A DNA stretch of 64,000 nucleotides from Escherichia coli (GTDB lineage Bacteria > Pseudomonadota > Gammaproteobacteria > Enterobacterales > Enterobacteriaceae). Below, one piece after another: positions 1 to 32,277 of the stretch. Where the stretch lies: assembly GCF_013122565.1 (NCBI RefSeq), contig NZ_CP053258.1; one strand, 5' to 3'. The position numbers and the translations under genes were made by a program. Position 1 is the stretch's first letter. Each line of letters begins with the position of its first letter. Under the pieces are notes generated by a model, which was not told where the DNA came from, did not search any database, and saw only the letters and a list, made by a program, of their open reading frames with translations.

Positions 1-84
1 TAAGTTTTCAGATAGCGCCTCTCTTAATGCCGCTGCGATCGGGTATACTCGGGCGGCAATCTGGGATTTCCGGGGGGAGACAAT

Positions 85-2073
85 TTGCGCGTAAGTCGCT
101 CGTTAACAATCAAGCAGATGGCAATGGTGGCAGCCGTTGTCCTGGTGTTCGTTTTTATTTTTTGCACCGTTTTGCTGTTCCATCTGGTCCAGCAGAATCG
201 CTATAACACGGCTACGCAACTGGAAAGCATTGCTCGCTCTGTCCGCGAACCCTTATCTTCAGCTATTTTGAAAGGCGATATTCCCGAAGCGGAAGCTATT
301 CTTGCCAGCATTAAACCGGCTGGCGTGGTCAGCCGTGCCGATGTAGTGCTGCCTAACCAGTTCCAGGCGCTGCGTAAAAGATTTATTCCAGAGCGTCCGG
401 TGCCGGTAATGGTTACTCGCCTGTTTGAGCTACCGGTTCAAATCTCGCTGGGCGTCTACTCGCTCGAACGTCCGGCAAATCCGCAGCCAATTGCCTATCT
501 GGTGCTACAGGCGGATTCCTTCCGTATGTATAAGTTCGTGATGAGCACCCTCTCAACGTTAGTGACCATTTACTTACTTTTGTCGCTTATCCTGACCGTC
601 GCCATCAGCTGGTGTATTAATCGACTGATTTTACATCCGTTACGCAATATTGCTCGCGAACTTAACGCCATCCCTGCCCAGGAGCTTGTTGGTCACCAAC
701 TGGCATTACCACGTCTGCATCAGGATGATGAAATCGGTATGTTGGTGCGCAGTTACAACCTTAACCAGCAATTGCTGCAGCGCCATTATGAAGAACAGAA
801 CGAAAATGCGATGCGCTTCCCGGTGTCGGATTTGCCGAACAAAGCCTTGCTGATGGAGATGCTGGAGCAGGTTGTCGCGCGTAAACAAACCACCGCGCTG
901 ATGATCATCACCTGTGAAACCCTGCGTGATACTGCGGGCGTGCTGAAAGAGGCGCAACGAGAAATTCTGCTGCTGACGCTGGTGGAAAAACTCAAATCGG
1001 TACTGTCGCCACGTATGATCCTCGCGCAGATTAGCGGTTATGACTTTGCTGTCATTGCCAATGGTGTACAGGAACCGTGGCACGCAATCACCTTAGGTCA
1101 GCAAGTGCTCACTATCATGAGCGAGCGCCTGCCGATTGAACGTATTCAACTCCGTCCGCACTGTAGCATTGGCGTGGCGATGTTCTACGGCGATCTCACC
1201 GCCGAACAGCTTTACAGTCGCGCTATTTCTGCGGCATTTACCGCTCGCCATAAAGGCAAGAATCAGATTCAGTTCTTTGATCCGCAGCAGATGGAAGCCG
1301 CCCAGAAGCGGTTGACGGAAGAGAGCGATATCCTTAATGCACTGGAAAATCATCAGTTTGCTATTTGGTTACAGCCACAGGTCGAGATGACCAGCGGTAA
1401 ACTGGTCAGTGCGGAAGTGTTACTGCGTATCCAGCAACCGGATGGCAGTTGGGACCTGCCGGATGGCTTAATCGATCGCATTGAGTGCTGTGGGCTGATG
1501 GTTACCGTCGGTCACTGGGTGCTGGAAGAGTCCTGTCGATTGCTTGCAGCCTGGCAAGAGCGCGGCATTATGCTGCCCTTGTCGGTAAACCTCTCTGCGC
1601 TGCAACTGATGCACCCAAATATGGTGGCGGATATGCTGGAACTGTTAACCCGCTATCGCATTCAGCCGGGAACACTGATTCTGGAAGTGACAGAAAGCCG
1701 ACGTATTGACGACCCTCATGCTGCGGTGGCAATCCTCCGTCCGCTGCGCAATGCCGGAGTTCGGGTGGCGCTGGATGATTTCGGCATGGGCTACGCAGGG
1801 CTGCGTCAGCTGCAGCATATGAAATCGTTGCCAATCGACGTACTGAAAATCGACAAAATGTTTGTTGAAGGCTTGCCGGAAGATAGCAGCATGATTGCTG
1901 CAATTATCATGCTGGCGCAGAGCCTGAACTTACAAATGATTGCCGAAGGCGTGGAGACTGAAGCACAACGCGACTGGCTGGCAAAAGCGGGCGTTGGTAT
2001 TGCCCAGGGCTTCCTTTTTGCTCGCCCACTCCCTATTGAAATCTTCGAAGAGAGTTACCTGGAAGAAAAGTAG
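85..2073 (+). CDS. pdeK: c-di-GMP phosphodiesterase PdeK (YhjK), membrane-anchored HAMP / degenerate GGDEF / EAL protein
   Basis: 662-aa ORF with hydrophobic N-terminus; C-terminal EAL-type domain (EVLLR variant); no canonical GGDEF motif; position upstream of dctA. Start uncertain: ORF opens with TTG at 85, first ATG at 118. Confidence 0.85.
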
Positions 2074-2219: not shown

Positions 2220-3542
<1,323 letters not shown>

Positions 3543-3556
3543 TCTCATCACTTATG

Positions 3557-3588
3557 CCCGCACTCCCTTCCCCGAGTGCGGGTGTTTG
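3557..3588 (+). terminator. Putative intrinsic terminator of dctA
   Basis: GC stem cccgcactc / gagtgcggg with 8-nt loop followed by tgtttg, 15 nt after the dctA stop. Confidence 0.5.
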
Positions 3589-3762
3589 CGCATAATTGAC
3601 CCCTGTGCCTGAACTTACCACCTGGGTGAGTTCAGGTTTATTTCACTTCTTCCGTGACATTTTCATGTTCTTGCGGTCTAACACGAAGTGTTTTTAACGT
3701 CATTTAGACTGACCGACAACGGGCAGTTTTTTTATTACCAGGATAGTTGATCAGGGGTTCAC

Positions 3763-5259
3763 ATGCAGGGCACAAAAATTCGACTTTTAGCGGGCGGTTT
3801 GCTGATGATGGCCACTGCTGGCTATGTGCAGGCAGATGCGCTCCAGCCTGATCCAGCATGGCAACAGGGGACGCTTTCCAACGGTTTACAGTGGCAAGTG
3901 CTGACCACCCCCCAGCGTCCCAGCGATCGTGTTGAAATTCGCCTGCTGGTTAATACCGGTTCGCTCGCCGAAAGTACACAACAGAGCGGGTACAGTCACG
4001 CCATCCCTCGTATTGCGCTAACGCAAAGCGGTGGCCTTGACGCAGCACAGGCGCGTTCATTGTGGCAGCAGGGGATCGACCCTAAACGCCCTATGCCGCC
4101 GGTAATTGTCTCTTATGACACCACGCTGTTTAATCTGAGTTTGCCCAATAACCGTAACGACTTGCTGAAAGAAGCGCTCTCTTATCTGGCAAATGCCACT
4201 GGCAAACTGACCATCACACCAGAAACCATCAACCACGCGCTGCAAAGTCAGGACATGGTGGCAACCTGGCCTGCCGATACTAAAGAGGGCTGGTGGCGTT
4301 ATCGTCTGAAAGGATCAACCCTGTTAGGTCACGATCCTGCCGATCCGCTGAAACAACCCGTTGAAGCGGAAAAAATTAAAGATTTCTATCAGAAATGGTA
4401 CACCCCGGATGCAATGACGCTGCTGGTGGTGGGAAACGTTGATGCGCGCTCGGTCGTCGACCAAATCAACAAAACGTTTGGCGAACTGAAAGGCAAACGT
4501 GAAACGCCAGCTCCGGTGCCGACGCTTTCTCCGCTGCGTGCGGAAGCGGTGAGTATTATGACTGACGCGGTGCGTCAGGACCGGTTATCTATCATGTGGG
4601 ATACGCCGTGGCAGCCGATTCGTGAATCAGCCGCACTGCTGCGCTACTGGCGTGCGGACCTGGCCCGTGAGGCGCTGTTCTGGCATGTTCAGCAAGCGTT
4701 AAGCGCCAGTAACAGCAAAGACATCGGTCTTGGATTTGACTGCCGTGTGCTGTATCTGCGTGCGCAGTGTGCCATCAACATCGAATCACCAAACGACAAG
4801 CTGAACAGCAACCTTAATCTGGTGGCGCGTGAACTGGCGAAGGTTCGCGATAAAGGTCTGCCGGAAGAAGAGTTCAATGCGTTAGTGGCGCAAAAGAAAC
4901 TGGAGCTGCAGAAACTGTTTGCCGCCTATGCGCGAGCTGATACCGATATTCTGATGGGCCAGCGGATGCGTTCGTTGCAAAATCAGGTTGTCGATATCGC
5001 GCCGGAGCAATATCAGAAACTGCGCCAGGATTTCCTTAATAGCCTGACGGTAGAGATGTTAAATCAGGATCTGCGTCAGCAGTTGTCGAATGATATGGCA
5101 TTAATACTGCTGCAGCCTAAAGGCGAGCCGGAATTTAACATGAAAGCGTTGCAGGCGGCCTGGGATCAAATCATGGCCCCATCTACCGCCGCTGCGACCA
5201 CCTCTGTCGCCACGGATGACGTACATCCTGAAGTTTCGGATATTCCACCCGCACAGTAA
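3763..5259 (+). CDS. yhjJ: YhjJ, periplasmic M16-peptidase-family protein (probably non-catalytic)
   Basis: 498-aa ORF with N-terminal signal peptide (MQGTKIRLLAGGLLMMATAGYVQA); M16-like N-terminal region reads SHAIPR where active enzymes have HxxEH. Confidence 0.85.
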   Translation: MQGTKIRLLAGGLLMMATAGYVQADALQPDPAWQQGTLSNGLQWQVLTTPQRPSDRVEIRLLVNTGSLAESTQQSGYSHAIPRIALTQSGGLDAAQARSLWQQGIDPKRPMPPVIVSYDTTLFNLSLPNNRNDLLKEALSYLANATGKLTITPETINHALQSQDMVATWPADTKEGWWRYRLKGSTLLGHDPADPLKQPVEAEKIKDFYQKWYTPDAMTLLVVGNVDARSVVDQINKTFGELKGKRETPAPVPTLSPLRAEAVSIMTDAVRQDRLSIMWDTPWQPIRESAALLRYWRADLAREALFWHVQQALSASNSKDIGLGFDCRVLYLRAQCAINIESPNDKLNSNLNLVARELAKVRDKGLPEEEFNALVAQKKLELQKLFAAYARADTDILMGQRMRSLQNQVVDIAPEQYQKLRQDFLNSLTVEMLNQDLRQQLSNDMALILLQPKGEPEFNMKALQAAWDQIMAPSTAAATTSVATDDVHPEVSDIPPAQ

Positions 5260-26184: not shown

Positions 26185-26200
26185 AGTTTTACTCAGGCAT

Positions 26201-26306
26201 AAAAAAAACCCGGCATAGGGGACCGGGAAGAGGATAGTCTGCCGTCTCCAGACTAATAAACCGTTATAACACTCCCTGTTGGCACGGGAAACTTTGTGCT
26301 CTCAGT
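26201..26306 (-). ncRNA. gadY: Small regulatory RNA GadY (antisense to the gadX 3' end)
   Basis: Minus-strand sequence ACTGAGAGCACAAAGTTTCCCGTGCCAACAGGG...CCCCTATGCCGGGTTTTTTTT matches GadY as I recall it, ending in a GC hairpin plus U8; lies in the gadX-gadW intergenic region. Confidence 0.7.
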
Positions 26307-26552
26307 AAGTTAAATATAACTTTTACTGGAAATAAGATCAGCCATTTTTTTATAAACATAAGCTATACGCTGTGTGAAAATATATTCTTATTGCATTTAC
26401 TAATTTTTAATCAACTGTTATGCAAAACTACTTTTTGGATAAATTTTGGTCCTACCAAATATGGCAGTTTTTGCACTAAGAAACAGTCTGGCATCATTTC
26501 ATTAGTATACTGAAATTGAAATAATCGCAGTAATGAAATATAAGGGATAATC

Positions 26553-31939: not shown

Positions 31940-32277
31940 TTTAGTCCCTGAAAATTCTTGAGAAATAACGGTTCTTTAAATTGCGCGCGAGGAGAGATAT
32001 GAGGGATTTACAGACCAGCGGCATAGTGGGGTTGTCAGCCAGTAAGGTGGGATACAGGCACAGTGATCGACATGGTGAGGTCAACGACAAAAAAAATGTT
32101 GCCGTTCTGCCAACAGTTCCTGCCAGCATTCGGGCAACGAAGGGTTCTACTGGTGGATACACATACCAGGGGAATAAAGTCGTTTTAGCCTCTCCTTTAG
32201 TAATCACCGGGGGTAATGAAATCAGCATCTGCATCCCTCGTCATGCCAGCCATCAATTTCAGTTGCTTATGTCCTGA

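Follow-up and report, generated by a model that had tools for sequence, protein, structure and literature searches.

Comparative sequence analysis places the translation start of Escherichia coli pdeK at an invariant TTG codon and assigns to the phosphodiesterase a highly conserved N-terminal tail

Positions 85–2073 of the plus strand of the E. coli DNA analysed here (the window, 64,000 nucleotides in total) encode PdeK, a 662-residue inner-membrane c-di-GMP phosphodiesterase which, judged from the comparison of homologous loci, is very probably translated from a TTG codon at position 85 (TTG85). The gene, also known as yhjK and named hmsP in RefSeq, is a known and already characterised gene and no chance pattern. 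A preliminary description had correctly pointed to TTG85 and to an in-frame ATG at position 118, and had left the true N-terminus undecided between the two. On the sequence evidence assembled below, this ambiguity appears to be resolved in favour of TTG85, in agreement with current RefSeq and with the UniRef-named 662-residue entry. That homologues uniformly begin at one and the same codon is, moreover, the very observation on which the preliminary description proposed to give up its own ambiguity. The features of the locus are collected in Table 1.

Table 1. Coordinates of features at the pdeK locus (window positions).
Feature	Position	Strand	Basis or remark
bcsC stop codon TAA	1–3	+	RefSeq annotation of three genomes (locus position 1503 = window position 3)
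Shine-Dalgarno sequence GGGGGGAGA	72–80	+	GGAG core at 76–79, 5 nt before TTG
TTG start codon of pdeK	85–87	+	TTG in 85/85 aligned sequences; RefSeq; NF008807
N-terminal cytoplasmic tail, 12 residues, net charge +3	85–120	+	100% column conservation
Internal Met codons ATG118 (Met12) and ATG124 (Met14)	118–126	+	Starts of older annotations, 651 and 649 residues
TM segment 1, about residues 13–35	121–189	+	Kyte-Doolittle 19-residue window maximum 3.14; GAPES3 begins at residue 36
GAPES3 periplasmic sensor domain, residues 36–155	190–549	+	Pfam PF17154, E = 5e-46, 156 bits vs cut-off 27
TM segment 2, about residues 151–178	535–618	+	Second hydropathy peak
HAMP linker, residues 178–231	616–777	+	Pfam PF00672, 21.2 bits, just under cut-off 25
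Degenerate GGDEF domain, residues 247–394	823–1266	+	Pfam PF00990, 43.9 bits
SGYDF motif (GGDEF position), residues 317–321	1033–1047	+	HMMER alignment to solved proteins
EAL domain, residues 415–648	1327–2028	+	Pfam PF00563, E = 3.8e-60
EVL motif (EAL position), residues 444–446	1414–1422	+	HMMER alignment to solved proteins
pdeK stop codon TAG	2071–2073	+	ORF end
dctA	2256–3542		Downstream of pdeK

The identification of the gene as pdeK, already made in the preliminary description, is borne out by its architecture, its profile match and its location. The single ORF of 662 codons begins 81 nt downstream of bcsC, with which the cellulose synthase operon ends, and the order bcsC, hmsP (pdeK), dctA, which is the neighbourhood expected of HmsP/PdeK and matches the RefSeq genomes, is constant in annotated E. 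coli genomes; a homologue in Pectobacterium sits between bcsG and dctA. The 2.4 kb around pdeK find a match of at least 95% identity in 5424 of 5426 complete E. coli genomes. In three of the genomes, the K-12 MG1655 assembly included, the RefSeq coding sequence corresponds exactly to window positions 85–2073, and in a fourth E. coli RefSeq genome the same TTG85 start is annotated, but pdeK is there a truncated pseudogene. The protein scores 782.7 bits against the NCBIfam HmsP equivalog model NF008807 (cut-off 733), with residues 2–659 aligned to profile positions 1–663 of 670, and Pfam matches together with two hydropathy peaks yield the TM-GAPES3-TM-HAMP-degenerate GGDEF-EAL arrangement of HmsP/PdeK, the GAPES3, GGDEF and EAL matches exceeding their cut-offs and the HAMP match being sub-threshold. 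The remainder of the 64-kb window is an ordinary E. coli yhj/gad/ars region.

For the start codon, one locus per species was taken from 80 Enterobacteriaceae genomes representing more than 20 genera (among them Escherichia, Citrobacter, Salmonella, Enterobacter, Klebsiella, Raoultella, Kluyvera, Kosakonia, Buttiauxella, Cedecea and Atlantibacter) at 65–97% protein identity. Together with four loci from more remote Enterobacterales (Pectobacterium, Sodalis and two others) and the window itself, this gave 85 sequences. The aligned start position reads TTG in all of them, where it has to be borne in mind that the 84 loci share phylogeny and do not amount to 84 independent observations, although saturated synonymous sites indicate ample divergence. 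Within the window and the 80 Enterobacteriaceae loci, the N-terminal 12-residue peptide is invariant and codons 2–11 differ by synonymous changes only; in the four more distant loci, residues 3–5 are altered. Among 78 distinct sequences, codons 2–11 are represented by 29 codon alleles versus 10 amino-acid alleles, and variation is confined to 11 columns, 10 of them third codon positions and the other the synonymous first position of Leu7 (TTA/CTN); random placement of the variable columns would produce such a pattern with a probability of about 3.7e-7. The coding signature sets in precisely at position 85, in line with a conserved N-terminus of the HmsP/PdeK type that begins at the TTG codon, and position 1 of the NF008807 profile aligns to residue 2. 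TTG85 is the first canonical start codon after an in-frame TAA at 25–27, and in the aligned loci the closest in-frame stops precede the TTG by only 4 codons. Just 5' of the TTG, conservation collapses between genera, with the exception of the GGAG core.

This core lies 5–8 nt 5' of the TTG in 83 of the 85 aligned sequences. The predicted duplex of the Shine-Dalgarno (SD) sequence at TTG85 with the anti-SD has an energy of -9.4 kcal/mol, stronger than the 1st-percentile value of the window background (-8.65). Counting against TTG85, SD and start codon are only about 40% unpaired in the predicted mRNA fold. A consensus scan of positions 1–84 yielded no terminator-like and no sigma-70 site; a TATACT at 44–49 resembles a -10 box and is without a matching -35 element. 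Transcripts of the bcs operon may continue into pdeK, or pdeK may possess a non-consensus promoter of its own. Overlapping ORFs at 27–206 (+) and 24–167 (-) were rejected, as the sequence upstream of the SD is unconserved between genera. An RNA-level cause of the conservation of 85–120 was likewise rejected, because synonymous positions vary freely and no Rfam match falls there.

The start ambiguity had a real counterpart in the databases, as an exact-sequence look-up finds the identical K-12 protein deposited at 662, 651 and 649 residues. The shorter versions are common (649 residues on more than 1000 contigs, 651 residues on 360 contigs), and UniRef lists the 662-residue form as 'Probable cyclic di-GMP phosphodiesterase PdeK', RefSeq as HmsP. 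What the preliminary description had overlooked is ATG124. Richter et al. (2020; PMC7397504) number the first residues of the EVL motif as E431/V432, the catalytic glutamate as E611 and the C-terminus as 649, corresponding to E444/V445, E624 and 662 in the 662-residue protein; the offset of 13 means that their numbering runs from ATG124. Historically, ATG124 is a more important alternative start than ATG118. An in-frame GTG is also found at 127–129.

Two alternatives to exclusive initiation at TTG85 deserve discussion. If ATG118 (651 residues) or ATG124 (649 residues) were the sole true start, 85–117 would be a 5' untranslated leader. In favour of this, ATG is used as a start codon more often than any other, the identical K-12 protein has been deposited in both shorter versions, the 649-residue numbering has entered the literature (PMC7397504), and within the Enterobacteriaceae Met12 never varies and Met14 hardly ever. 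We nonetheless consider initiation solely at an ATG extremely improbable, since neither codon is preceded by a ribosome-binding site: the predicted SD:anti-SD energies are +0.1 kcal/mol for ATG118 and -1.6 kcal/mol for ATG124, with -2.2 kcal/mol for GTG127, compared with a background mean of -2.2 kcal/mol. ATG124 is, in addition, fully base-paired in the predicted fold, and 88–117 combines codon periodicity, synonymous-only variation and an invariant peptide, quite unlike an untranslated leader. Distant homologues that retain the tail carry Thr or Ala instead of Met14, and a protein beginning with MAMVAAVV... would be devoid of positive charge ahead of TM1. A main product from TTG85 accompanied by a minor, tail-less isoform from ATG118 or ATG124 is very improbable as well. 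In its favour, E. coli genes with internal in-frame starts have been described (the topic of a retapamulin profiling preprint), two conserved Met codons follow 11 and 13 codons downstream, and ATG118 is predicted to be 61% unpaired. Against such dual initiation stands that neither ATG has an SD ahead of it, and that Met12 and Met14 belong to a conserved protein segment, which accounts for their own conservation; in the case of Met14 this conservation fails more widely. Among experimental sources, the TRAINSPOTTER N-terminomics supplements (PMC13245402) hold no entry for pdeK, yhjK, b3529 or P37649, and two Yersinia hmsP papers yielded nothing on the translation start. Translation of PdeK from TTG85 is the reading that we adopt in the following.

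What depends on the choice of start is a charged cytoplasmic extension. The preliminary description had assumed that the start codon affects the length of the first TM or signal segment; the hydrophobic segment of about residues 13–35 is in fact identical for every start candidate, and it is the presence of an 11–13-residue tail with a charge of +3, polar in its first 11 residues, that differs. Over the window and 79 full-length Enterobacteriaceae orthologues, column conservation in this tail is 100%, versus 0.79–0.90 in the annotated domains and 0.52 in the C-terminal tail, such that the N-terminal tail, by this alignment, is the most conserved stretch of PdeK. Its RSLTIKQM core persists in most of the distant Enterobacterales homologues that were read, at approximately 50% identity (Pantoea, Sodalis, Pectobacterium, Brenneria and others), with QSLTIKQM in the LUAb1 homologue; Met14 is often Thr or Ala in Enterobacterales homologues of about 50% identity. 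These distant N-termini stem from a protein-database search in which residues 1–253 served as the query; its matches are all at most about 440 residues long and do not constitute a full-length census.

According to the positive-inside rule, the tail would set the N-in orientation of TM1, the first of the two TM regions reported to flank the periplasmic loop of PdeK (PMC7397504). Turning to the start codon, TTG is a weak one, and it would appear plausible that this invariant codon holds PdeK at a low level. We would go further only tentatively: that the invariant tail and the invariant TTG are specific functional features, beyond generic signals for topology and expression, may be the case but seems rather doubtful to us. 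The tail could then be a contact or regulatory element, for example one acting on the HAMP linker or on a partner protein of the cellulose synthase complex, and the TTG could be selected for a low PdeK copy number that suits a local c-di-GMP sink.

The cytoplasmic part of the protein conforms to what the preliminary description had read from the sequence, namely the lack of a GGDEF or GGEEF motif and the EVL variant of the EAL motif. In HMMER alignments, 'ISGYDFAVI' of PdeK lies opposite 'LGGDEFIIL' of 5m3c_A and 'MGGDEFTLL' of 4rnh_A, and 'AEVLLR' lies opposite 'AEALVR' and 'AEALLR' of solved GGDEF-EAL proteins. The set of EAL active-site residues is complete (E444, R448, N502, E534, E537, D564, D565, K588, E621, E624 and Q641), comprising the E-x-L motif, the Arg, the Asn, ExxE, DD, the Lys, the EGVE Glu and the Gln of an active EAL domain, and these catalytic residues are 95–100% conserved among orthologues. 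The EVL variant is neutral, as orthologues alternate at the motif between EVL (35) and EAL (41). The preliminary description was right to conclude that PdeK acts as a phosphodiesterase and not as a cyclase, and this had already been published: phosphodiesterase activity was shown in vitro (PMC7397504), and SGYDF/EVLR is tabulated for YhjK along with the EAL residue string in PMC3484386. The HAMP linker, too, has been described for PdeK (PMC7397504).

Judged by its SGYDF motif, the GGDEF domain is catalytically dead as a cyclase. The motif departs from the consensus at the first Gly and at the two positions of the catalytic carboxylates, GG[DE]EF was found in none of 80 aligned sequences (the window and 79 orthologues), and the RxxD inhibitory site is missing, LSPR of PdeK lying opposite RDVD of 5m3c_A. 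One may still ask whether the domain is inert. In Caulobacter crescentus PdeA, the GGDEF domain binds nucleotide and regulates the EAL domain allosterically. A corresponding role in PdeK, or alternatively a residual cyclase activity, could be read from the retention of the domain, with about 82% column conservation across orthologues, similar to that of the EAL domain, and from its persistence in lineages from which the EAL domain has disappeared. [quoted passage not shown]

In terms of function, the work of Richter et al. provides the framework. The purified cytoplasmic part of K-12 PdeK is a highly active c-di-GMP phosphodiesterase in vitro, and this activity is abolished by E431A/V432A (EVL to AAL) as well as by E611A (PMC7397504). 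PdeK makes contact with the cellulose synthase subunit BcsB through its TM regions and with the MASE2 domain of the cyclase DgcC through its periplasmic loop, and it antagonises DgcC as a local c-di-GMP sink at the cellulose synthase (PMC7397504). Docked on BcsB and DgcC, PdeK is described as draining c-di-GMP locally and thereby damping cellulose synthesis. Full-size PdeK caused only weak phenotypes in vivo, and the authors suggested that the membrane/periplasmic part inhibits PdeK pending a signal (PMC7397504). YhjK behaves as a phosphodiesterase in strain CFT073 as well (PMC3484386).

Our findings are of little import beyond bookkeeping, as earlier publications already cover the gene and its phosphodiesterase activity along with the degenerate GGDEF domain and the EVL motif. 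Mildly noteworthy are the invariance of a weak TTG start codon across the whole alignment and the fact that the most conserved tail is left out of the 649-residue numbering. In practical terms, residue numbers in the main PdeK paper (PMC7397504) are shifted by 13 relative to the 662-residue protein, and constructs derived from the 649- or 651-residue annotation would miss the most conserved dozen residues of PdeK, which is relevant to work on its membrane insertion, topology and signalling. If the published 'full-size' PdeK constructs follow the 649-residue annotation, the tail would be missing from them.

Among known systems, the closest is K-12 PdeK itself (YhjK, b3529; WP_001266293.1, 'biofilm formation regulator HmsP'), which shares the locus bcsC-pdeK-dctA-yhjJ and the same 662-codon ORF. 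Within 2400 nt it deviates from the window by 18 nucleotide and 3 amino-acid differences (S99R, K199Q, G599E), all substitutions lying outside the motifs, and the two sequences agree throughout the start region, in SGYDF and EVL, and at every catalytic residue. A locus of Salmonella enterica subsp. arizonae, 85% identical to the window, has the same TTG, SD and tail. The Salmonella Typhimurium orthologue of PdeK, STM3615 (YhjK), is needed for the enhanced rdar morphotype of dsbA/dsbB mutants (PMC4143323), which differs from the PdeK phenotype. Yersinia pestis HmsP, the namesake of NF008807, is likened to PdeK via this profile model, which the window protein matches over its whole length; HmsP has been described as a phosphodiesterase opposing the production of biofilm exopolysaccharide, and the matrix that it controls is Hms (poly-GlcNAc) rather than cellulose.

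The best PDB matches, 5m3c_A ('Diguanylate cyclase'), 4rnh_A ('Motility regulator') and DosP (E = 1e-66, 1.9e-61 and 3.8e-52, respectively), cover residues 246–660. All three have EAL active-site motifs in common with PdeK and are without its GAPES3/TM/HAMP N-terminal module, and 5m3c_A and 4rnh_A possess intact GGDEF motifs where PdeK has SGYDF. LapD-type receptors (NF045673), which match residues 14–650, show the same layout of TM segment, periplasmic domain, TM segment, HAMP, GGDEF and EAL. With 121.9 bits against a cut-off of 1020, PdeK does not belong to this family. In LapD, the EAL domain is degenerate and non-catalytic and binds c-di-GMP; PdeK, by contrast, retains the complete set of catalytic EAL residues and is active.

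The first 12 residues of PdeK, encoded at positions 85-120, are completely conserved in the 80 aligned sequences (the window protein and 79 full-length Enterobacteriaceae orthologues), exceeding every domain of the protein (100% versus 0.79-0.90). The weak TTG start is not replaced by ATG or GTG in any of the 85 sequences compared, despite saturation of synonymous sites nearby.

A working EAL domain is missing from HmsP/PdeK homologues in several Enterobacterales lineages, as seen in the four more distant loci that we compared (see table). The Pectobacterium homologue carries no EAL remnant, and similar proteins of about 383-394 residues occur in many Pectobacterium species, one cluster of such proteins comprising 295 member sequences (database search with the N-terminal part of PdeK, returning proteins of up to about 440 residues). 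All four homologues nevertheless start with TTG, and three of them keep the GGAG ribosome-binding site and the peptide RSLTIKQM, the LUAb1 homologue having GGGGGA and QSLTIKQM instead. Retention of the N-terminal module and its start signals in EAL-defective homologues suggests that the sensor and membrane module of HmsP/PdeK has a role apart from phosphodiesterase activity.

Within the Enterobacteriaceae, the EAL glutamate (residue 444) is lost in 4 of 80 aligned orthologues, namely those of Kosakonia arachidis (KAL), Enterobacter sp. JUb54 (KVL), Enterobacter sp. Bisph1 (HAL) and Klebsiella indica (KVH), where the motif replacing EAL/EVL is given in brackets. The Bisph1 orthologue additionally shows the active-site changes E534A, E537D, K588N and E621A. 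Judged from these substitutions, the four proteins are probably catalytically dead. A different alteration was encountered in E. coli NBRC 3301, where the EAL domain of pdeK is fused internally to that of pdeH, with deletion of dctA, yhjJ and kdgK; each half is annotated as a partial pseudogene in RefSeq. Recombination between the paralogous EAL domains of the two genes appears to have produced the fusion.

Features located in the window and in comparison loci
Feature	Location	Strand	Description
pdeK-pdeH fusion	L089 (E. coli NBRC 3301, NZ_CP048439.1) 2585-4836		window 85-1755 joined to pdeH
Pectobacterium homologue	L084 3001-4185		394 residues, GAPES3-HAMP-degenerate GGDEF; between bcsG and dctA
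Sodalis homologue	L085 3001-4936		frameshifted
L086 homologue	L086 3001-4728		EAL remnants decayed
LUAb1 homologue	L087 3001-4320		truncated
GadY	window 26196-26309	-	Rfam match above gathering score
ES205	window 32089-32160	-	Rfam match above gathering score
AgrB	window 41590-41673	-	Rfam match above gathering score

The bcsC stop is separated from the pdeK start by 81 nt, and scanning of this gap (window 1-84) revealed neither a terminator-like hairpin nor a promoter of the sigma-70 consensus type. At 44-49, inside GGGTATACTC, lies a TATACT that is kept in Escherichia, Citrobacter and Salmonella, and not beyond. Past the pdeK stop, inspection by eye showed a hairpin-like GCTGG...CCAGC at 2106-2140, whose loop is 9 nt long and after which the sequence is T-rich. 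This hairpin was not among the results of the terminator scan, in which loop lengths of 3-8 nt were allowed; it may represent a weak terminator of pdeK upstream of the dctA promoter region. Elsewhere in the window, the small RNA matches GadY, ES205 and AgrB are as expected for the gadX-gadW and dinQ regions of E. coli.
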